UHGV virus genome: UHGV-1709118
Strand: one strand, 5' to 3'
Source: a virus
DNA length: 61,628 nt
Shown in pieces: positions 1,122 through 61,628 of this stretch. A program made the position numbers and the translations under genes. Numbering within the stretch: the stretch's first letter is position 1; every line of letters begins with the position of its first letter. The notes under the pieces are model-generated. The model was not told the DNA's origin, did not search any database, and worked only from the letters and a program-made list of their open reading frames with translations.

Positions 1122-2354
1122 ATAGAAGAAAATCTTTTCCAGCGTTTTTGTAATTTTGACGCTTTTTATGATTCTTCTTATTCTATTTGCCGAAACGTAA
1201 GATGGAAAGATAGTACAGTTAATTTTGAAGAAAATAGATTAAATAACATCTTAACGCTTAAAGAACAATTAGAAAATGACAGTTATGAACAATTAGTTTT
1301 TAACAGTTTTAGTATAATTGAGCGGGGCAAACCTAGAGATATAAGAGCGTGCCATATTTATGACAGATTGGCACAAAATACATTATGTTCGCAAGTTCTT
1401 ATTCCAGAACTAACTCCAAAATTTATTTATGATAATTGTGCTACATTAAAAGGAAAAGGAATTGATTTTGCTTTGCTAGAAGTGCGTAAACATTTACAAG
1501 CAGCGCACAGAACATATGGTTTAGGAAAATCTTTTTATGGTTTAAGAATTGATATTCAAAAATTTTTTGATTCAATAGACCATAATTCTTTAAAGCAAAT
1601 GGCAAAACATTATATTAAAGAAAAACGAGTATTTAAATTAATTGATTATATTATTAATACCTTTTGTTTTTCAGTCACGAAAGATACAGTTCCTATTCCT
1701 GATAAACAATACTATATCATCAAAAAACAAAAATATAAGATAATTTATCCTAAACAATTTTATAAAAATTGTACTTATTATGAATTTAATCATAAAAGTT
1801 TAGGTTTAGGTAGTCAAGCATCTCAATTATTAGCTTTATTGGCATTAAATGGAATTGACCATTATGCAAAAGAGCATTTGCATTTAAAATATTATGGACG
1901 TTATATGGACGATATTTATATTTTGCATAATGACAAAGATTATTTAAAAGAATGTCTTAATAAAATTGAAAATGAATTAAATAAAATACATTTAAAATGT
2001 AACAAAAGAAAAACTAAAATAATTAAAATTAGTCCAATAAAACTAGATAAAAATAATTATCCTCATAAAAGACGTTCAGATAAACATAATCCATTTAAAT
2101 ATTTAAAATGGGATTTTTATTTAACTAATACGAATAAAATTATTCAAACTCCATTTAAAAAGAAAATAAAGCGACAATATAGAAAAATGAGAAAAATGCA
2201 CCAACTTTGGCTACAAGGTAAAATAACTGATATAGAAATTCAAGAATCATATCGAGGTTTTAGAGAACATATAAATAAAGGTACTACTTTTTATATTATA
2301 CAAAATCTTGATAATTATTTCCATTCATTATTTAAAGGAGTTGAAATATTATAA
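1122..2354 (+). CDS. DGR reverse transcriptase
   Basis: ORF track 1368-2354 has YMDD at 1902-1913 and LGSQASQ; open frame continues upstream to stop at 1101-1103 and encodes conserved N-terminal RT region (ERGKPRDIRACHIYDRLAQ); only ATA at 1122 follows RBS aaggaga, no ATG/GTG/TTG before 1368. Confidence 0.85.
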   Translation: MEENLFQRFCNFDAFYDSSYSICRNVRWKDSTVNFEENRLNNILTLKEQLENDSYEQLVFNSFSIIERGKPRDIRACHIYDRLAQNTLCSQVLIPELTPKFIYDNCATLKGKGIDFALLEVRKHLQAAHRTYGLGKSFYGLRIDIQKFFDSIDHNSLKQMAKHYIKEKRVFKLIDYIINTFCFSVTKDTVPIPDKQYYIIKKQKYKIIYPKQFYKNCTYYEFNHKSLGLGSQASQLLALLALNGIDHYAKEHLHLKYYGRYMDDIYILHNDKDYLKECLNKIENELNKIHLKCNKRKTKIIKISPIKLDKNNYPHKRRSDKHNPFKYLKWDFYLTNTNKIIQTPFKKKIKRQYRKMRKMHQLWLQGKITDIEIQESYRGFREHINKGTTFYIIQNLDNYFHSLFKGVEIL

Positions 2355-3013
2355 TGTATTTATTAATCAATAGAGAAAATATAGTAGTCGATATCCTCAC
2401 GGAAATCCGCTACATCAAATTACAATCCAACCCAAGTATTGTCATTGCTTGCTCGGAAGGTGAAGCTACAGGGGTAATAGGCTCAGATTGCAATAGCCAT
2501 TTCATTTTGGCTAATTCAGATATGACAGGTTCTATTGATGCAGTAAGAATTTTATCTTTTGATGGTAATATTCCAGAAGATTATGAACCTAATTTTTATA
2601 AATATGATAATGAAAAAAATGAATTAACATATTACTATTCTTTAGAAGAATACCAAAAAATGAAACAAGAAGAAAATAAAAAAGCTTTCGCTAATTTCCT
2701 TGTTAATCATCCTTTAACTTGGATTGATGGAAAGCAATATGGAGTTACAGAAGAAGACCAGGCAGAAATTAGCCTAAATATGAACCAATATTCTATGGCA
2801 ATTCAAGCTGGAGCCGAGAATCCTAGATTAGAATGGCATGCTCGCCAAGAAGAATGTACATCTTGGACAGTTGAAAATTTGACTGCTTTAACTTTAGCTA
2901 TTTCTGATTTTGTTTATCCTTATTATAGAAAAATGCAACAATATAAAACACAAATTTATACTGCTAAAAATTATAAGGAAATTAAAGCCATAGAATTAAA
3001 ATATGAAAATTAA
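2354..3013 (+). CDS. hypothetical protein, translationally coupled to RT (TAATG overlap)
   Basis: 219-aa ORF; ATG 2354 overlaps RT stop 2352-2354. Confidence 0.5.
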   Translation: MYLLINRENIVVDILTEIRYIKLQSNPSIVIACSEGEATGVIGSDCNSHFILANSDMTGSIDAVRILSFDGNIPEDYEPNFYKYDNEKNELTYYYSLEEYQKMKQEENKKAFANFLVNHPLTWIDGKQYGVTEEDQAEISLNMNQYSMAIQAGAENPRLEWHARQEECTSWTVENLTALTLAISDFVYPYYRKMQQYKTQIYTAKNYKEIKAIELKYEN

Positions 3014-3440
3014 TTCTTTTTTTAAAAATTCTATATTATTTTTGATTGGCGGAAGTATTTACTGGTTAATTGAATTTGTTTACAAAACATATATAAATTC
3101 AGGAAATACTCATTGGTCAATGTTTATCTTAGGCGGTTTATCTTTTTTAATTTTAGGTAGCTTAAATGAAAATATTCCTTGGAATTGGTCTTTATTAGCT
3201 CAAGGATTAATTGGAACCGCAATTATAACAAGTTTAGAATTTTTATTTGGATATATTTTAAACATTCAATTACAACTTAATATTTGGGATTATTCACATT
3301 TACCTTTTAATTATAAAGGACAAATATGTTTATCTTTTAGTTGTCTTTGGTTTATTCTAGGTCTAATAGGAATTATTTTAGATGATTTTCTTAGATGGAA
3401 AATCTTTGATGAAGAAAAACCTTATTATCATATTATATAA
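3003..3440 (+). CDS. small integral membrane protein (about 4 predicted TM helices)
   Basis: 145-aa ORF with four hydrophobic segments; overlaps previous gene by 11 nt. Confidence 0.5.
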   Translation: MKINSFFKNSILFLIGGSIYWLIEFVYKTYINSGNTHWSMFILGGLSFLILGSLNENIPWNWSLLAQGLIGTAIITSLEFLFGYILNIQLQLNIWDYSHLPFNYKGQICLSFSCLWFILGLIGIILDDFLRWKIFDEEKPYYHII

Positions 3441-3451
3441 AACAAAAAAAT

Positions 3452-3476
3452 GGGTAAGAGCATTTAGCTCTTACCC
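3452..3476. terminator. bidirectional rho-independent terminator between convergent DGR operon and tail operon
   Basis: gggtaagagc-attta-gctcttaccc with A-run upstream and T-run downstream. Confidence 0.65.
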
Positions 3477-3488
3477 ATTTTATTTTTA

Positions 3489-12111: not shown

Positions 12112-15100
12112 TCATTTAAATTTAGCATAAACAATAACATCTGGATCTATTTTACTATTTTTATTCAAATGGCCTTCACCACTAAAATAACCTGTAAGTC
12201 TACCATCCATAGTCCCTTTTACTGTTATAGTACCAGTTTCATTGCCCACTGGTTGAATCTTATCAGTTTGTATGGTTGGGGTTGAAATATAACCATTTCC
12301 AGATAAACTTAATTTTTTATTAGCAGAAATTGTTACATCACTTGTAATTGTTGTAGGCTTTTTAATAGTCATTCCGTCATCTTTTAAAACCAACCAAGAA
12401 CTTCTAATATACAACTGGTCAGCATCTGTTTCTGCACCTAATCTAATAGTTCTATTTTCAACAATAAATTTTTTATCTAAATTATCAATATTAGAACTAT
12501 TTCCACAATAAAAACCTTTTCTTGCCATTATATTACCATGCATCCAAATACTACCTGTTGAAACAGACATAGAAATATCACTAGAAGCTACTACTCTTGC
12601 GCCTCCAAAACTATATATACCTACGTTAGATGTTTTTGAAACACCATTATCGCCACCTACTAATCCCATATATCCTATTTGACTACCTTCTCCTCCACTT
12701 GCTCCAGGTAAATTAAAAACTAAAACTTTATTAGTCTTAATTTCTCCACCTTTACACAATTCAGTAAATAATGTACCAGATACCATTTGAACTTCTCCAG
12801 TTACTGAATCTTGAGAAGCATATTCAGAAGTAATTTCCCCTCTTAAATTAGTAGGATTAATTTTCCAACCAGCAATATCTCCACCACTTGCATACAATTT
12901 CTGAGTATAAATTTGTCCACTACTATTTAAAGTAGTACCTGTCCAGGTTGGTACTCCTCCTGCTTCTGATGGTTGATTTACTGAAGCGCCAGGACTTTTT
13001 AAACTTTGCCCAGTAATTTTCCAACCAGCAATTTCTCCATCAGTGTTAGCAACTAAATTTCTACAAGTAATTGAACCTCCTCTTAGTCCAGTTGAATCAA
13101 TAGTAAAATCAGCTATCTTGCCGCTTTTAGTTGCCGTTAAAGTGGTTGCTTCAACATTACCTTTTATTTTAACATTGTTAGCATACATATAGCCATTATA
13201 AGTTACATGAAAAGCAGATTCACCTTTTGAATCATTAATATTAATAGCTTTTGTACTACCAGTCATTCGCATATCAGATAAAGTTAATTTCATACTATTT
13301 GCGCCATTTTCTGTTAAGCCACCATAAATATTTGCTTTTGTTCCATCAATATTAATTCTTCCGCTAGTAGAAGCACCAAAAAATGCAGAACCATCTTGCA
13401 TTAAACCAAAAGTAGTAATACCATTTTGATAACCATATAAACCAATTTTTTTCTGCCCGCTATCTTTACCCATAACAACGCCGGTAAATTGATTTTGTTC
13501 ATTTTTAGTACCTGCGCCAACCTGCGGGGCAAAAACATATTGGCCTTTGTTATCTATATCTAACTGTGTTCCATCCCAGCCATTAATAGCTTCATTACCG
13601 TATGTATCAAGATACATAACAATAGAATGTAATAAATATCTAGTATTATATTGCGGGTCGGGGCATTTTAAAATACCAATACTACTATTATTTTTAGCAG
13701 AATCTCTTTCAAAAATAAAATTAGAAGAAGGTACTAAATATCTATCTATAATTTCAGATTCCTTTTGCTGTTTATCTTCAATTACTAAAATATCTTTATT
13801 CAATGATTCTACTAATTTAGTTTGGTCTATTTCATCAAAAGTGTATTTCAGAGCGTTACTATAAAAAGAAGGATTTAAACCAGAAGAATTATATTTAATA
13901 TAAGAAGGAATTTCATTTATGTCAACTCTATTATATTCAAAACCATTAACTGCAACATCAATAGGATAAATAGAATAAAGATAAACAGTAGAATCTCCTG
14001 CTTTTTCTCTAACAGTTATTTTAATTTTTATATAAAATTCATATTTATCAGAAGTAGAATAAAAATCTATAACTGGATCACTACTGCCGGAAATACTAAT
14101 ATATTCATCATCAGTCTCTGCTTCAGGCAATTTTATATTTGTTCCAGACCATTCATATTTAATAGTATATTTATTACCATTTAAATTATTAATTAATTCT
14201 CCATCTTTATAAACATAAACCCTTAATTTTAAAGTATTCCATCCTCTTTTTCTAACTTCTAAAATTTGTTTTATCTTTTCTTCATTAGAAAGAGTATTAT
14301 CATTTCTAATTCTTTCTTGTTCATCTAAAAGTTCTTTAGTTAAAGGATTAAAAACTAAAGGTTGTAAACCACTTAATTTAATACCATTATCATCACAAGG
14401 ACGAATAGCTGCGATATAAGTAGTACCATTAGTACCTTGATCACCATCTTTAACAAAAAGAATTTCTTTATTAAAAATATATTCCTTTTGGTCTAAAGTG
14501 GTAACTTTAATTTGAATGGTATTATTGTTAAAATTTATTTTATACTTCTGTTTAATAGTATAATGTAAAATATTATATTTGTCAACCCAGAGATTTTCTA
14601 TCATCGAATCAATAGGATTAACTCTTTCACCTGTTGTTAATAAACTTCCATCTGGACTATACCATGTCATATCATAAGAAGTGCCGACTCCATCTTTCCA
14701 GACAAATTGGCACTCAATGGTACGCTCTTTTTCAGAATCCTCAATAGTTATATCACCATTAGAATCATATCTAAAAGAATCTTCTCCAATATACTTTATA
14801 CTTAAATCTTCTTGTGATTCAGTATTAGTAATTGTATATTCTTCAGTGGCAATAATATTTTTTCTATCTTTATCATAAATACTACAATAAAAAGTTACAG
14901 CAGAATATAAAAGATATTGCTTAACTTCTATTTCAGATTTTTGTTTACCATTAGGTACCTCTTGATAACTTCCATCAGGTAAAGATAAATACCAATCACC
15001 AACTAATTCATCTTCATCTCTATTATTTTTAATATGTAAATCAATAGTATCTCCAACAGTTAATTGCTCTAGCCAACAATTATAATCAGTATTATAATTG

Positions 15101-27152: not shown

Positions 27153-27205
27153 ATTTTCTCCTTAAAGCAAAAAATAGGGAAGAGTAAAACTCTTCCCTAT
27201 TTTTA

Positions 27206-41414: not shown

Positions 41415-41454
41415 AAAATTTTTAGATATATTAATTAAAAATAAAAAAAAATTT

Positions 41455-41485
41455 TAATAAAACTCGCCTTTGGCGAGTTTTATTA
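41455..41485. promoter_or_regulatory. 14-bp-arm palindrome between divergent promoters
   Basis: taataaaactcgcc-ttt-ggcgagttttatta. Confidence 0.45.
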
Positions 41486-41498
41486 AAAGTAATTATTT

Positions 41499-45077: not shown

Positions 45078-45106
45078 TAGACAAAAGGCTATCTCGATGG
45101 TATAAT
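45078..45106 (+). promoter_or_regulatory. early promoter
   Basis: TAGACA, 17-bp spacer, TGgTATAAT, then conserved leader acagaaattaagg. Confidence 0.45.
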
Positions 45107-45140
45107 AAATACAGAAATTAAGGAAAGGGGTCAATGACCT

Positions 45141-45488
45141 ATGAAAAAGTTCTTCTCTATCATCGCTATTCTAGCAATCACTATCTCTGCTCTCACTACT
45201 TCTGCTTGCGCTCTTAGCACTCCTGCTGAAAATGCCAGATACTGTGCAACAAACAGCATCCACTATGGTATGAATACTGTTCGTCTGGTTCGCGCTACTG
45301 TTACTGCAACTCATGATGATGGATGTGTGACATTGAAAGACATGCGTGATGGCAACCTGTACGCCATTGATGATGATGGCCTTGTGAAAGGTGAGGACGT
45401 TCTCATTGCCATTGACGACAATGCTACACCAGGTTTTGTCTATGATGACATGATTCTTGGCTTCTGGAATGGTTCTGCTCTTAAATGA
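45141..45488 (+). CDS. secreted/lipoprotein-like small protein
   Basis: signal-peptide-like N-terminus MKKFFSIIAILAITISALTTSACA; GC-rich. Confidence 0.5.
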   Translation: MKKFFSIIAILAITISALTTSACALSTPAENARYCATNSIHYGMNTVRLVRATVTATHDDGCVTLKDMRDGNLYAIDDDGLVKGEDVLIAIDDNATPGFVYDDMILGFWNGSALK

Positions 45489-50263: not shown

Positions 50264-50458
50264 ATGAAGATTAATTATAAATCTTTCAGCGTGGAAGTTT
50301 TTGGTGAAAATATTTGGGGCCAAACCTATCTGAACAGAGTAGGCTTTGATTCTGAGGAAGAAGCCGATAAGTTCATTGAATCTCTGGAAAAGGAAGAAGG
50401 AATTTATTCGGCAATTAAAATTGTAAATACAAGTTACAATTTCAGAAAAAACCCTTGA
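50264..50458 (+). CDS. hypothetical small protein
   Basis: ATG 50264 with RBS aaaggaga. Confidence 0.4.
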   Translation: MKINYKSFSVEVFGENIWGQTYLNRVGFDSEEEADKFIESLEKEEGIYSAIKIVNTSYNFRKNP

Positions 50459-50515
50459 CAAACAAACCAAGACGTGTTATAATAAACACAGAAATTAAGA
50501 AAGAGGTTGATAATT

Positions 50516-50737
50516 ATGAAAGCAAGCACTAACACAAAAATCAATATCGACATCACCGGCATCTGCATGTGGTTCCTCTCTTCCCTCTTCATTTGGCTGG
50601 GCTGGAAAGTTCTGGTGGCTCACTTCGGCTTGCCTTACTTTACCTATCTGGAAATCTTCGCCATGCGTATGGGGCTGGATGGTCTTGCAAGCATCTTCCG
50701 CAAGAAAAAAGAAGTGGAAGGCGAAAATAAGGCTTGA
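50516..50737 (+). CDS. small membrane protein
   Basis: 73-aa ORF with hydrophobic core; promoter TTGACA 50455-50460. Confidence 0.45.
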   Translation: MKASTNTKINIDITGICMWFLSSLFIWLGWKVLVAHFGLPYFTYLEIFAMRMGLDGLASIFRKKKEVEGENKA

Positions 50738-51446: not shown

Positions 51447-51691
51447 GAATGACAGAAAGAATCGAGAGATTTTTCAATCTTGATGAAGAGGAGAAGGAAA
51501 TTCTCAAAAAGGCTAGTTATATTCTCTGCGACATGGCAGAAAATGTTGATGGTTTAGGAAAAATTTCCTTAACTTATGAGAATTTTACTGAACCATTCGC
51601 AAAAACTCGGAGTTATGATGAAGGGAATCTTTATGATTTCTCATACCTATTAGCTGTTCTTTCTAAGGCAGAAACAATTGAAATTGAATAA
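51443..51691 (+). CDS. hypothetical early protein
   Basis: 82-aa ORF overlapping previous stop; terminator 51695-51719 follows. Confidence 0.45.
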   Translation: MRMTERIERFFNLDEEEKEILKKASYILCDMAENVDGLGKISLTYENFTEPFAKTRSYDEGNLYDFSYLLAVLSKAETIEIE

Positions 51692-51776
51692 AAATAAGGG
51701 CCTTTGGCCCTTATTTTTTACTTGACAGATTTTTCTTTCTATGTTATAATAACAATAGAAAAGGAGATGAAGCAAA

Positions 51777-52937: not shown

Positions 52938-53336
52938 ATGAAAGCTACTGGTATCATTCGCCGCATCGATGACCTGGGTCGGGTGGTCATCCCCAAGGAA
53001 ATCCGCCACAATATGCACATCTGGGAAGGAGACCCTTTGGAGATTTATACTGCTTCGGATGAAATTGTTCTCCGCAAGTATGTTCCATCCGCAGAAAACA
53101 AGGCTTCTATTGCTCAGAAGTGGTTAGAGGACAATGCTCATATGTTATATGGCACTTCTGCAAAGTTCAGTATTGAGGGCAGAACTACTGTTTGCGAAGT
53201 TATCAGCAATAATCATCGCCTGACTGGAAAAGCAACAGCCACAACAAATGACACTTTCATTCCCGCGGTTGGTATGGTTATTGCTTATTGCCGAGCCGTT
53301 GGTTGGACTATTCCCAAAGAACTTATTGAGGATTAA
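52938..53336 (+). CDS. AbrB/SpoVT-family transcriptional regulator-like protein
   Basis: N-terminus GIIRRIDDLGRVVIPKEIRHNMHIWEGDPLEIY...IVLRKY matches AbrB swapped-hairpin domain signature. Confidence 0.6.
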   Translation: MKATGIIRRIDDLGRVVIPKEIRHNMHIWEGDPLEIYTASDEIVLRKYVPSAENKASIAQKWLEDNAHMLYGTSAKFSIEGRTTVCEVISNNHRLTGKATATTNDTFIPAVGMVIAYCRAVGWTIPKELIED

Positions 53337-53990: not shown

Positions 53991-54524
53991 ATGATTATGT
54001 TCTCTATCAAAAATTGTAATAGCGTTCTGGAAGGTGCTGCTCAGGTCGTTAAACTGTTCGGGGATGAACCCTTCACTTCTGATAGATATGATGCGGCTCG
54101 TGGTAAGGGACGCTCTAAGGCGGAAACTCTCTTCAACCACAACATCATCAAAGTGGTGGGTAAAGCGCCGGTCTATGATACAAATTGGCCTAGATGCAGA
54201 GAAACTGCTCCTTATGTAACAAACCGTGCCGGCGAACTTCTTATGAAGTATAAGGAATACAGAGAGCTGCCGGTAGCGGCAAAGGAAGCTCTAATTGCAG
54301 CCAATGGTGGGGAAGAGTTGGGCATCCACTATGATAGAAGTGATATTACTATCTGCTATCGAGATACTTTTGCCTTTAATGCAAGCGGGTATCAAGAATA
54401 TCTCCAGGAAGTTTATACGAATCTTCTTTTTCAGATAGAAAGTAAGAAACAGGAAGTTCTTAAAATGGAGGATTGTTTTGGTAAGGTAGTTAAAGCATTT
54501 CAAGCAAATGCAATGAAGTTATAA
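53991..54524 (+). CDS. hypothetical protein
   Basis: ORF track 53988-54524; promoter TTGACA-TGaTATAAT overlaps previous gene end. Confidence 0.45.
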   Translation: MIMFSIKNCNSVLEGAAQVVKLFGDEPFTSDRYDAARGKGRSKAETLFNHNIIKVVGKAPVYDTNWPRCRETAPYVTNRAGELLMKYKEYRELPVAAKEALIAANGGEELGIHYDRSDITICYRDTFAFNASGYQEYLQEVYTNLLFQIESKKQEVLKMEDCFGKVVKAFQANAMKL

Positions 54525-54613
54525 AAATCTTTCACTTTGTGCAATTTATCTATTGACAAAACAAAGCAAAGATGCTATAATGAATACAGAAATTAAGAAA
54601 GGAACTGATAGCT

Positions 54614-54835
54614 ATGCTGTGTATGAAGAACGTGTTCAATGTCATGAAAGGTATCACTCGCGTAAGAGATAAGTTCAGAGGAAAAGGGTTCACTTTTTCT
54701 GAGTATAGCACCGATGACTATCAGAATTACTTACGTTATTTACAGACTGCGTTTGAATTAAAAACTATGGACAAAGAGCAGGAACTTGACAAATTGAAAG
54801 CTAATCTTGACAAAGTGGAAAAGGAAATGAGATAA
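54614..54835 (+). CDS. hypothetical small protein
   Basis: 73-aa ORF; bidirectional-type terminator 54841-54867 follows. Confidence 0.45.
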   Translation: MLCMKNVFNVMKGITRVRDKFRGKGFTFSEYSTDDYQNYLRYLQTAFELKTMDKEQELDKLKANLDKVEKEMR

Positions 54836-54881
54836 AAAAATGAGGGATTTTTCCCTCATTTTTTTTTGTACATTTTGCCTA

Positions 54882-58623: not shown

Positions 58624-58740
58624 ATGACCTGTGAATTATTAAAGGCACTTGCGGTGATTATTGAATACTGCTTAAAGCAGGATAATTGCAAAGTTTGTGT
58701 TATGCGTGATTTCTGTTCTAAGATGCCTTGTGAGTGGTAA
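58624..58740 (+). CDS. Cys-rich mini-protein (38 aa, not in ORF track)
   Basis: ATG 58624 after aaggaaaggag; CxxxxC...CxxC pattern. Confidence 0.3.
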   Translation: MTCELLKALAVIIEYCLKQDNCKVCVMRDFCSKMPCEW

Positions 58741-58827
58741 ATTACTTTAAAGATTTTAGAGATAGAAAGGCCCGTTTTAGGGTCGAAATTTCGCACGTCT
58801 AGGTCATCAGAAAAAAAATATCTGGAT

Positions 58828-59028
58828 ATGTTGAAAACTGAATTTGCCAGAAAGCTGGACTCGACTGGTCGATTAGTTATCCCTTCTAAGTTAAGAGATT
58901 ATCTAGGAATGGAAACCGGCCAGTTATTTACTTTTTATATTCAAAAAGAAGAAAATGGAGATGTGTATTTGTGTGTGAAGTGTCCTAGTAATAAAATAAA
59001 ATTTACTTTTGGTGAAAATGCCGATTGA
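58828..59028 (+). CDS. AbrB/MazE-like small DNA-binding protein
   Basis: RKLDSTGRLVIPSKLRDYLGMETGQLFTFY matches AbrB/SpoVT swapped-hairpin signature. Confidence 0.5.
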   Translation: MLKTEFARKLDSTGRLVIPSKLRDYLGMETGQLFTFYIQKEENGDVYLCVKCPSNKIKFTFGENAD

Positions 59029-59053
59029 CATAAGGCTGGTTTTATGGTATACT
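59025..59053 (+). promoter_or_regulatory. promoter for ORF-free transcript
   Basis: TTGACA 59025-59030, 17-bp spacer, TGgTATACT 59045-59053. Confidence 0.55.
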
Positions 59054-59059
59054 ATATAT

Positions 59060-59205
59060 AAGGAGTGGCGGGCTGTGGACAGTGGTCACAGCCCGAAATC
59101 CCCTTTCCACTAGCATATGGCGATTTTTCTAGACTTCTAGCGACCCTTCATATGGCCGGGGTTTTTCCCGAAAGTGGCTCACCCGCTCGGGAAAAATTTT
59201 TTTTA
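59060..59205 (+). ncRNA. candidate small RNA (about 145 nt)
   Basis: consensus promoter upstream; 9-bp GC hairpin 59069-59095; terminator-like hairpin plus T-run 59156-59204; no plausible ORF. Confidence 0.35.
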
Positions 59206-59408
59206 ATTTGTCAAGTCAAAGCCCGCATTTGACTTTTTAAAAATTTAAGGCATAAAAAAAAATCAACTTGACTTTTCAAAAAATAAAAGAAAAAATAAAG
59301 TCAAGTTGATTAATAATTAAAAATATTATATAATATTTATATAAACAAAAGGAAAAAGAAAAAGAGATTGCATATGCCCGCTCGGTTTGTTGAAAGTGAG
59401 GTTAGAGC

Positions 59409-60116
59409 TTAAAATGCGGATTCATACAAGTCATGATCGGTTGATCTAACTAACATTTTTCCAGTCTCATCTCTAAATTTGAATATTACATCCTGAAATG
59501 TACCTTCAAAAGCAAGGCGATCCGCGTGATTTAAATATTCTTCTTTAGTCATGTCAGTTTTTCTAAATTCTTTTTCTAGTAATACCATACGTTGAATAAT
59601 TTCTGGCTTATCACCAAAAATAGCGGTAGTATATTCATCAAAGATTCTTTGCTCCTCTGGAGTTAAATCTCGATAGGGTTTGCCGTTTACTGCTTTATCA
59701 AGCTTAATACCCCACTGATATTTGCGGGTTCCATAGATACCCTTGCTGATTTCATCAGCGGTAACTCCAAATCCTATCACTCCAGCTTTGGTCATACGGC
59801 GTCTTCTTTGACTATCAGTTAATTTAGCATATTGTGGCAAAGAACTAATTTCTTCTGCTATATTAGAAATAGAATTAAGAGGATATTTACGCACTTGGTC
59901 TAAATAAACTTGAACATCTTGTGATAAATCACCTTGATATTCATCAATATAAATTTCTTTTACAATAATACCTCCATATACTTCTTCATAATCACAGTAA
60001 TCTTTTAAGAAAGGCATTACTTGTGATTTCTTTTTGCTTTTAAAAAAGTTATAAGTATAACCAAACCAATCGGCTAACTCTCTTGACGTAATTTTACCTA
60101 ATTGTAATTGTTTCAT
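59409..60116 (-). CDS. helix-turn-helix regulator-like protein, divergent from early genes
   Basis: 235-aa ORF; N-terminal LGKITSRELADWFG resembles an HTH. Confidence 0.45.
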   Translation of the reverse strand: MKQLQLGKITSRELADWFGYTYNFFKSKKKSQVMPFLKDYCDYEEVYGGIIVKEIYIDEYQGDLSQDVQVYLDQVRKYPLNSISNIAEEISSLPQYAKLTDSQRRRRMTKAGVIGFGVTADEISKGIYGTRKYQWGIKLDKAVNGKPYRDLTPEEQRIFDEYTTAIFGDKPEIIQRMVLLEKEFRKTDMTKEEYLNHADRLAFEGTFQDVIFKFRDETGKMLVRSTDHDLYESAF

Positions 60117-60283
60117 TTTATTTTGTCTCCTTTTAAAAAAATTTTTTATATTTGGGCAAAACCTAATAGTGGATACTATTTATGCACTCTCTTATATTTC
60201 TCTAACGGTGTGCATGTTTGATATCTACTATCTTAATTAAATAAAATTGCTACTTTTACTTCACTACTCTACTTATAATAACG

Positions 60284-60355
60284 TAAATAAGTCATCCTTT
60301 GGATGACTTATTTACTAAGGAATAATAAATCGACCTTTGGTCGATTTATTATTCC
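60284..60355. repeat. two tandem perfect AT-rich palindromes (14- and 17-bp arms, each with ttt centre)
   Basis: taaataagtcatcc-ttt-ggatgacttattta and ggaataataaatcgacc-ttt-ggtcgatttattattcc. Confidence 0.6.
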
Positions 60356-60528
60356 ATTAACTTTTCTCTCTCACTTTCAATTTTCCCTTCAGAAATTGTG
60401 AGTTCCATTCCCCAATTTTTTCCAAATGAAAATTCAAAATAACTACTCCCCTATATCCACAATTGAAAATATTAAAAAATTATTATATAATATATATAGA
60501 AAAACAAAAGGAAAGGAATTAAAAATTT

Positions 60529-61083
60529 ATGTCTACTTATAAGGTTAATGATTGCTGTAACGCCTCTACTGCCGAGCTTAACTCTTCTTGCAACTGCAAG
60601 ACTACTATGAAGTTTGAGGACTATATTGTGGACGAGCTGCGCAAGGGCAAGTCTATGGATGAAATTATGAAGTATATCTCTGAGCGAGCTAATGCCGCGG
60701 AGTCTACTTTTAAAGCAGAGCAAAATAAAAAGAAGAGTTTTTGGTTGGTGAAGACTCCTGTTGAGGGTGATAGAGATTTCATTTTTGGTAATCTGCATGT
60801 AAAGATTAATGATGCTCTTGTTCATTTGAGTAATGGTAAGATTACTACTGAAGATTTCATTATTCTTTTGATTGAGGGTCTTTATCAGATTGCTCCTGCT
60901 ATGCGCCCTATGCTTGATGAGATTAGTCTTGATGATGATAGTATTAATCTTCTGGCTGAGAGCATGAATAAGGAATTGAGCAAGATGGATAAGCTTTTCT
61001 CTGTTGCTAAGGCTTTTAGTAATGAGACTGATGATGACGCAGAAAGAATTAATAAGTTTTTGGACTCTCTCACTCTACTGTAA
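60529..61083 (+). CDS. hypothetical protein
   Basis: 184-aa ORF; terminator hairpin 61082-61101. Confidence 0.45.
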   Translation: MSTYKVNDCCNASTAELNSSCNCKTTMKFEDYIVDELRKGKSMDEIMKYISERANAAESTFKAEQNKKKSFWLVKTPVEGDRDFIFGNLHVKINDALVHLSNGKITTEDFIILLIEGLYQIAPAMRPMLDEISLDDDSINLLAESMNKELSKMDKLFSVAKAFSNETDDDAERINKFLDSLTLL

Positions 61084-61162
61084 AAGGGGATAACCCCTTT
61101 TACAGGGGTAGGTGCGGTTGACAAGAATTGAAAATGAGTAATAGGTAGGTGAGTGCTGCGCA

Positions 61163-61275
61163 AAGCACCTCTCCATTTTAGAATATTTTAAGAGATTTTA
61201 TTATAAGCACCTCTCCATTTTAGAATATTTTAAGAGATTTTATTATAAGCACCTCTCCATTTTAGAATATATTTT
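61163..61275. repeat. 42-bp direct tandem repeat, about 2.7 copies (iteron-like)
   Basis: unit aagcacctctccattttagaatattttaagagattttattat at 61163, 61205 and partial at 61247. Confidence 0.7.
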
Positions 61276-61628
61276 AATAAAAACACTTCTCTAATTCGTA
61301 AACCCTTTCTTTTAATCTTCTTTATTTCCATTGAAAAAATAACTTTCAAGGTGATTTTCCCCACTACTTCTTTAAAAACCATTGCAAAAAATCTCTCCTC
61401 TAGTGTCTTTTGATGAGAAAAAACGCTATATCACAATTCGCCAATTAGAAAAAAAATCAACTCAAACTTTTAAACTGGCATCCTCACGAACCTATCTCCT
61501 TTCCGAAGATAATTCCTCTTTGAAAATAGAACGAATCCACGTCTTTAAAAACCGAGAGAATAAACATTTTCTCTCCTTCAAATACACTAATCCCATTGAT
61601 TTCCAAATCTGGGTAAAAGAGTATACTA

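Follow-up and report, generated by a model that had tools for sequence, protein, structure and literature searches.

A Reverse-Strand Gene for a Predicted DNA-Binding Protein, Its Candidate Palindromic Operator and Tandem Putative Terminators in the Early Block of a Clostridia-Type Siphophage

In the early block of a 61.6-kb phage sequence a single gene lies on the reverse strand; it encodes a protein of 235 amino acid residues (235-aa protein) which, in the reading that best fits the data (probability about 0.55), would bind DNA at an imperfect TATA-centred inverted repeat at 60164–60232, two perfect hairpins farther upstream acting as tandem bidirectional terminators; the DNA binding, autoregulation, termination and antisense interference that make up this reading are all predicted. 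On this view the locus would be a regulatory island on the reverse strand, set within the early operons of a siphophage of Clostridia type. The protein appears to carry two recognition modules, a helix-turn-helix (HTH) at residues 11–30 and a basic helix beginning near residue 100, and as a symmetric oligomer it probably binds the repeat immediately upstream of its own gene, the TATA-rich centre of which is likely the shared −10 region of weak divergent promoters. Such binding would control both the synthesis of the protein itself and the divergent transcript. Plus-strand transcripts started at the strong promoter of 59306–59334 and at promoter-like sites in or beside the repeat would be stopped by the hairpins (60283–60355) before they reach the next early promoter at 60463, and on the minus strand the hairpins would also shield the weak promoter of the gene from incoming transcription. 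The features of the locus are collected in Table 1.

Table 1. Features of the locus of the 235-aa protein (positions are those of the window).
Feature	Position	Strand	Remarks
Inverted repeat, perfect, 15 nt, AATCAACTTGACTTT / AAAGTCAAGTTGATT, 21-nt spacer	59261–59311	both	just downstream of the 235-aa protein gene
Early-type promoter TTGATT-17-TATAAT	59306–59334	+	at the 3′ end of the 235-aa protein gene; antisense through the gene toward the hairpins; conserved in L007
235-aa protein gene, ATG at 60116	59409–60116	−	predicted N-terminal HTH, central winged-helix-like domain, C-terminal helical hairpin
Ribosome-binding site GGAG	60127–60130	−	10 nt from the ATG; visible in the sequence itself
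Imperfect inverted repeat, arms 60164–60187 and 60210–60232	60164–60232	both	TATA-rich centre 60188–60209 (22 nt); arms 16/23 complementary
Promoter-like site TGGATA-17-TATATT	60170–60198	+	inside the inverted repeat; points from the gene toward the hairpins
Promoter-like site TTGATA-18-TAAAAT, 10/12	60218–60247	+	toward the hairpins; L007 equivalent TTGTTA-18-TAAAAT
Hairpin 1, perfect, 15-bp arms GTAAATAAGTCATCC / GGATGACTTATTTAC, loop TTT	60283–60315	both	core GTCATCC/GGATGAC, flanked by an A-rich tract and its U-rich complement
Hairpin 2, perfect, 17-bp arms, loop TTT	60319–60355	both	core TCGACC/GGTCGA, then UUUAUUAUU
Promoter TTGAAA-17-TATAAT of the divergent neighbour gene	60463–60491	+	from a consensus scan
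Divergent neighbour gene, 184 aa	60529–61083	+	no family match; syntenic with the family gene in other loci

Results and Discussion

Genome Context and Related Loci

The whole stretch of DNA analysed (the window) is a phage genome or genome fragment of 61.6 kb with 32% GC, and a nucleotide similarity comparison of it with 50,697 phage records gave no match. The minus strand carries a siphovirus-type structural module with a portal, a terminase-like protein and a tape-measure protein of 2857 residues, and small plus-strand early genes form a long block from 41.5 kb to the right end. The preliminary description of the locus had pointed to a lone minus-strand gene in this block, and 59409–60116 was confirmed as such; it is a real gene. 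The protein has 27 close homologs, and a profile search retrieved 580 clusters at 50% identity, nearly all of 230–260 residues and full length. No tRNA was found in the window, no integrase or other lysogeny gene among the window ORFs scanned, no replication gene was recognised anywhere in the window, and no nuclease, recombinase or transposase is associated with the reverse-strand island.

The related-locus search with closer alignment gave two viral, 13 metagenome and three genome loci (loci and contigs carry L numbers below). Those related contigs that had been binned into MAGs point to Oscillospiraceae, Clostridium or Eubacteriales as likely hosts. In L007 and L015 the protein is 96–97% identical to that of the window, and in L007 its gene is also the only one on its strand among 28 called genes. 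In other phages the family gene lies in reverse-strand islands of one to three paralogs; full-length island paralogs matched the family profile (hmmsearch) at 1e-43 to 1e-45, and an island paralog of 269–288 residues has mainly an N-terminal module of about 60 residues in common with the family. The 184-residue divergent neighbour is related to L007_up179, L004_up151 and, via the latter, L010_up111.

In-frame TAG codons were seen within the family genes of L004 (4699–5430), L013, L017, L019 and L029. Those of L004 fall at positions occupied by Gln in a database protein (ELAQW, FKEQTG), and therefore some of the related phages use TAG-to-Gln recoding; the gene of the window has no in-frame stop and terminates with TAA. 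Contigs L002, L003, L009, L012, L015 and L020, some of them 12–40 kb long, end 35–510 nt upstream of the family gene, and the start of L015 falls exactly between the two hairpins, a pattern suggesting that assemblies break here because of palindromes, tandem duplication or heterogeneity among strains in the regulatory region. Elsewhere in the window, a gene at 1368–2354 (+) encodes a reverse transcriptase of 328 residues (PHROG 1423 at 2e-57, Pfam RVT_1 at 3e-14), whose size and context are those usual for a diversity-generating retroelement; next to it lies a gene for a DUF4376 protein (2354–3013). Two small DNA-binding proteins of the AbrB/MazE type (SpoVT-AbrB) are encoded in the early block at 52938–53336 (+) and 58828–59028 (+), with homologs in L004 and L007.

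The 235-aa Protein

A canonical HTH signature was found at residues 11–30 of the protein, and an AlphaFold2 model built from 26 sequences was confident (pLDDT 87). The model consists of an N-terminal strand-helix-turn-helix-beta-hairpin (residues 7–55), a three-helix and beta-hairpin unit (residues 66–150) and a C-terminal helical hairpin; its compact fold matches were winged-helix domains, all of them weak. Comparison with Pfam, PHROGs, NCBIfam and PADLOC gave no family match, and HTH matches, all below threshold, were seen in about 10 of 72 relatives. Nothing meaningful was obtained from PDB by single-sequence or profile search, and Foldseek searches of BFVD and PDB with the model returned no significant match. 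Since no curated DNA-binding HMM matched, the HTH assignment rests on the signature, the AlphaFold model and the weak fold matches; the HTH-like N-terminus proposed in the preliminary description is thus upheld by a sequence signature and a predicted structure, and the HMM classification that it had called for gave no curated match.

Domain searches of the protein showed no S24 peptidase or CI-like architecture (HTH_3 plus S24 or equivalent), and no Rep family matched it by sequence or by profile search of solved structures. It is probably a sequence-specific DNA-binding protein and a probable autoregulated regulator; nothing was found in support of the antirepressor label that had been attached to it. 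It is the founding member, here, of a large unannotated phage family (580 clusters).

The TATA-Centred Inverted Repeat

Most family genes with enough upstream sequence, and each paralog too, are preceded by a long inverted repeat 30–170 nt before the ATG with a TATA-rich centre of 13–29 nt, as exemplified in L001 (AGTTGATCCAAAAATGCACTCT[18]AGAGTGCATTTTTGGATCAACT; 31/31-bp repeat before the L001 paralog). These repeats scored 11–31, as against shuffle maxima of 8–14. In about 200 kb searched, repeats of such architecture with at least two TATA in the centre were essentially confined to the islands, the one exception lying in the short contig L030, near whose beginning it occurs well away from the family match. 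The sequence at 60164–60232 is the window copy of this family element, a candidate operator and bidirectional promoter, and is degenerate yet clearly homologous to perfect copies in L007. Its outer block ATAGTRGATA occurs in the window only in the two arms of the repeat; no further TATA-centred inverted repeat was found in the rest of the 61-kb window, and the search for further copies of the full arm there gave a chance-level match only.

The arms are 31% identical between loci, and their complementarity is 88% within a locus as compared with 32% between loci. The arm mismatches (12 G-T, 15 A-C and 23 other) have no G-T wobble bias on either strand, and therefore an RNA-hairpin reading of the repeat is disfavoured. 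Isolated third copies of an arm are present inside islands, in L010 at 2759 and in L001 at 9771, with three mismatches in 23 nt each; because such copies cannot form hairpins, they favour protein half-sites. Orthologs of the 235-aa protein have in common two arm blocks about one helical turn apart, AGTTG-N9-ATG(C/T)NC, and the most conserved non-coding feature is the motif xCAACTAT, 35–45 nt before the ATG. In both arms, −35-like TTGAnn blocks lie 16–18 bp from the −10-like TATA centre, in both directions (8–9/12), and the predicted element fits a pseudo-symmetrical bidirectional promoter (PMC12825309).

In L007 (2030–2320) and L015 (80–368) the promoter-proximal unit is tandemly duplicated. 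The window has one unit only, a hybrid, and this points to recent recombination inside the element. The duplicated unit is composed of the inverted repeat, ATTAGGTTTTGYCC, an A/T run and a ribosome-binding site; in the distal copy the ribosome-binding site and the start codon have decayed.

Co-Variation of Protein and Site

The window and L015 have in common the HTH residues D16, T21, F24 and S27 and the outer arm block ATAGTAGATATC, and L007 has N, S, T and N at the same residues and the outer block AGTTGAACCC. Residues 98–106, at the start of the basic helix, differ in all three phages, and so do the inner arm blocks (ATGCAC, ATGTCC and GCTTCC). The two helix segments, which make up 20% of the protein, contain eight of the 14 nonsynonymous sites, and synonymous changes are evenly spread (binomial p 0.003; Fisher test against synonymous sites p = 0.03, with segments picked after seeing the data and with three phages only). 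In this small sample, the pattern is the one to be expected of two recognition elements reading the two blocks of each arm. The TATA-centred repeat is a candidate for a cognate dyad-symmetric site near a regulated promoter, as indicated by its place upstream of most family genes, the covariation of its arms and their correlation with the helix residues. The divergent autoregulated HTH regulator with a palindromic operator, as first proposed, gains support from this repeat and not from the palindromes then flagged.

It is possible, though somewhat doubtful, that the family as a whole has two recognition helices and that each copy is tied to its own TATA-centred palindromic promoter-operator, residues and arms diversifying together between near-identical phages and between tandem paralogs. 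The copies would then be private specificity modules (heteroimmunity-like or timing switches) lying antisense within the early operons of gut Clostridia phages, the TAG-recoded ones included. The 580-cluster family, without annotation anywhere, now has a candidate function (sequence-specific DNA binding) and a defined candidate site, and the pair formed by the window and L007 is a natural specificity swap, with four residues against one arm block. Confirmation of this function would provide a regulator annotation for many gut-phage genomes; orthogonal protein-operator pairs would become available as a compact library, and the diversification of repressor-operator specificity could be followed in a case study.

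The Tandem Hairpins

Both of the palindromes that had been flagged upstream of the gene exist and are perfect; hairpin 1 is longer than first described, with 15-bp arms at 60283–60315 instead of 14-bp arms at 60284–60314. The hairpins start 167 and 203 nt upstream of the ATG at 60116, and the whole pair spans 167–239 nt upstream. RNA folding gave −18.8 kcal/mol for hairpin 1 and −22.5 kcal/mol for hairpin 2 on either strand, both being present in the MFE and centroid folds of both strands, and the 181-nt region folded at z = −11.4 relative to dinucleotide shuffles, a high value owed to the two hairpins alone. A consensus terminator scan picked out both as terminator-like, hairpin 2 in the plus-strand direction and hairpin 1 in the minus-strand direction; in L007 hairpin 2 was likewise terminator-like on the equivalent strand. 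The outer 3′ arms and tails are U-rich but interrupted (tail U of 2–6/10). The hairpins sit in a divergent intergenic region, not after a coding gene, and the plus-strand promoters at 59306, 60170 and 60218 are upstream of them. A search of Rfam at the gathering threshold, and at E ≤ 1 over 58700–61628, gave only a chance-level match of a plastid 3′ UTR family over hairpin 2.

Each hairpin is a diverged copy of the other, and the stem changes that separate them, three in number, are compensatory, so that pairing has been preserved and not a common recognition sequence. Most likely they are tandem bidirectional long-stem terminators insulating the reverse-strand gene, not operators. Back-to-back terminators had been given as the alternative in the preliminary description and prove to be the better fit.

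Hairpins of this kind are numerous in the window, which contains 25 perfect hairpins with arms of at least 10 bp (10–17 bp seen) and loops of 3–8 nt, as compared with 0–4 in ten local shuffles. Their RNA folding energies are −15 to −24 kcal/mol, roughly 20 of the 25 lie within about 40 nt of a gene end, and many consist of an A-tract, a GC core and a T-tract, the form of bidirectional intrinsic terminators. Examples besides the tandem pair are 3447–3481, 27170–27204, 41452–41488, 51690–51718 and 54834–54865. The design AATAAR..CC-TTT-GG..YTTATT is common to hairpins 1 and 2, 41452–41488 and 51690–51718, and hairpin 41452–41488 is likewise in a divergent region, between the late and early blocks. 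The 25 long-stem hairpins are candidate strong, possibly antitermination-resistant terminators for AT-rich Firmicutes; placing the flagged palindromes, ordinary as they are, among them guards against over-reading.

Promoters and Antisense Transcription

The leader of the 59306 promoter (59306–59361) is a near-copy of the leader of the 60463 promoter (60463–60518), and the only reading frame that the 59306 promoter drives is a 12-codon mini-ORF (59374–59412) overlapping the opposite-strand stop codon of the 235-aa protein gene. Such early promoter-leader units form a repeated sequence family, further examples being at 45097–45145, 50446–50528 and 54523–54603. In L001, a distant locus, analogous perfect-consensus promoters at 12210–12182 and 11082–11054, on the strand of the surrounding block, are placed at the 3′ end of island genes, each facing into its gene; it thus appears that antisense transcription across reverse-strand islands, as predicted from these promoters, is part of a conserved design. 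The tandem hairpins are proposed to be the way in which one lineage ends antisense transcription ahead of the 60463 promoter. No promoter with a match of at least 9/12 points toward the 235-aa protein gene, and thus its promoter is predicted to be weak or factor-dependent, as would be usual for autoregulated regulators.

The right arm of the 59261–59311 inverted repeat holds the −35 of the antisense promoter, and the repeat is conserved in L007 at 3125–3176, where it is extended to 16 nt. At least four copies of the motif AAAGTCAA(G), in both orientations and including this repeat, are found at 59211–59311, between a candidate small RNA and the antisense promoter, and may be a binding-site cluster for another regulator. 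The candidate small RNA (59025–59206, +), just downstream of the 235-aa protein gene, is predicted from a segment of about 145 nt, GC-rich in an otherwise AT-rich genome, which lies behind the near-consensus promoter TTGACA-17-TATACT (with TG) and ends in a stem and T8 terminator; it has no Rfam match, a fold z-score of only −1.8 and about 93% identity in L007. On the other side of the locus, a 42-nt unit is repeated in tandem at 61163–61288, 80 nt beyond the 184-aa gene; of its three copies two are identical and one has 69% identity, and they could be iterons or binding sites.

Alternative Explanations

The hairpins were first read as paired operators bound by the 235-aa HTH protein in an autoregulatory or antirepressor-type switch, a reading in keeping with their place between divergent genes, with the plausible DNA binding of the modelled protein and with the perfect dyad symmetry that operators typically show. 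Absence of the palindromes from homologous loci had been named as the finding that would speak against it. Besides the window, hairpins 1 and 2 are present only in the near-identical L007 and L015 and are absent from all more distant loci, so that the operator reading is refuted on those terms, and another palindrome is the conserved one. In addition, the three compensatory stem differences leave no common half-site, hairpin 1 of L007 and L015 has an inverted loop between unchanged arms, about 23 other similar terminator-like hairpins are present in the genome, and at 167–239 nt from the start codon no predicted promoter overlaps the pair; paired operators are accordingly very unlikely. Another possibility is a short non-coding RNA (about 60–150 nt) transcribed divergently from 60170–60198 or 60218–60247, with the hairpins as its 3′ end; they would both terminate and stabilise it, and the RNA would itself be the functional product. 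The promoter matches are only 9–10/12, however, and this RNA has no Rfam match, no evident target and no counterpart of its segment in distant loci. The two plus-strand promoter-like sites are 36–113 nt upstream of hairpin 1 and have an equivalent in L007, the 50-nt segment from repeat to hairpin is better conserved than the repeat arms in the window, L007 and L015, and the fold z of −11, counted in favour, comes from the two hairpins alone. Altogether, a functional short RNA is unlikely.

The 235-aa protein might also be an origin-binding replication initiator, with the TATA-centred palindrome as origin and the hairpins and 42-nt repeats as accessories. This reading is retained because no replication gene was recognised in the window, and some viral origins have a similar layout, with inverted sites around an AT-rich centre; the tandem winged helices are reminiscent of iteron-binding Rep proteins, although the match is not significant, and three direct repeats are at hand at 61163–61288. 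Two or three tandem paralogs elsewhere, each with a distinct palindrome, would be unlikely for origins, however, the profile search of solved structures gave no Rep-family protein, the 42-nt repeats are 1 kb away, and the palindrome lies directly upstream of the ribosome-binding site, the place expected of a promoter or operator. An origin is, in consequence, quite unlikely. To the same degree improbable is that the hairpins, the repeat or both work as cruciforms or single-strand hairpins, DNA structures that would serve in recombination, in nicking or in hairpin-dependent transcription: the island lacks a nuclease, recombinase or transposase, single arm copies occur in isolation, unable to form hairpins, and most similar hairpins sit at gene ends and are terminator-like. 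The arms are perfectly complementary up to 31 bp despite fast sequence turnover, and AT-rich centres would favour cruciform extrusion. Several large contigs end just upstream of the family gene, with L015 beginning between the hairpins, and the flipped loop of hairpin 1 has also been counted in favour, but loop inversion is a common template-switch mutation in palindromes. Finally, transcription of the TATA-centred repeat could give a 5′ UTR with an RNA hairpin that is processed by RNase III, for instance, or that regulates translation. RNase III substrates match stems of 20–31 bp in length, and the minus-strand fold includes the hairpin of the repeat; set against this, neither strand has a G-U wobble bias, no predicted promoter upstream of the repeat faces the gene, and a −10 region accounts better for the conserved TATA centre, which makes a 5′ UTR element extremely unlikely.

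Two further candidates were rejected. N4-like hairpin promoters for a virion RNA polymerase had been prompted by the 2857-aa ORF, which is the tape-measure protein, and a protelomerase-type target was discarded on account of the asymmetric 13–21-nt centres of most repeats and the absence of a protelomerase.

Comparison with Known Systems

The predicted terminators resemble TerR of the Bacillus plasmid pLS20 (PMC10325885), with perfect stems of 15–17 bp (15 bp in TerR), short loops, complementary A- and U-tracts allowing both directions, and a Firmicutes host lineage. Typical Bacillus terminator stems are of 9 ± 2 bp, and perfect stems of at least 14 bp were shown to give resistance to processive antitermination (PMC10325885); at 15 and 17 bp, both perfect, the stems of hairpins 1 and 2 are above the approximately 14 bp that sets off a TerR-type long-stem terminator (PMC10325885). 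In contrast to the 10 consecutive U of TerR, their U-tracts are interrupted (UUAUUUAC, UUUAUUAUU), and they are tandem, in a divergent intergenic region, with termination predicted only.

The layout of the locus can be compared with the lambda-type immunity region, in which cI and cro diverge from OR and PRM is weak and autoregulated. Here too a gene for a DNA-binding protein (predicted) diverges from early genes, its weak non-consensus promoter lies beside strong early promoters with dyad-symmetric DNA at the promoter, and, in the manner of heteroimmune phages, near-identical relatives have different recognition-helix residues and different site sequences. Unlike lambda, the window has no S24 peptidase, cI-like domain or recognisable Cro, and no integrase or other lysogeny gene among the ORFs scanned; one long repeat with 20–30-bp arms takes the place of three 17-bp operators, other phages have paralog arrays, and terminators lie between the divergent units. 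For the protein itself, the multi-winged-helix DNA binders MecI/BlaI, PadR, MarR, TraN of pIP501 and Mga/AcpB are also comparators.

The repeat invites comparison with the pseudo-symmetrical bacterial promoters of Warman, Grainger and co-workers (PMC12825309), in which −10 elements are shared or overlapping and divergent start sites are 10–23 bp apart. It differs from these in that its symmetry spans the whole of the 20–30-bp arms, including the spacer, which RNA polymerase does not need, and in that its matches are moderate (8–9/12). In agreement with such promoters, its symmetric AT-rich centre could be a shared −10, with the −35-like blocks in both arms at the distance given above, and regulators at bidirectional promoters can favour one direction (PMC12825309).
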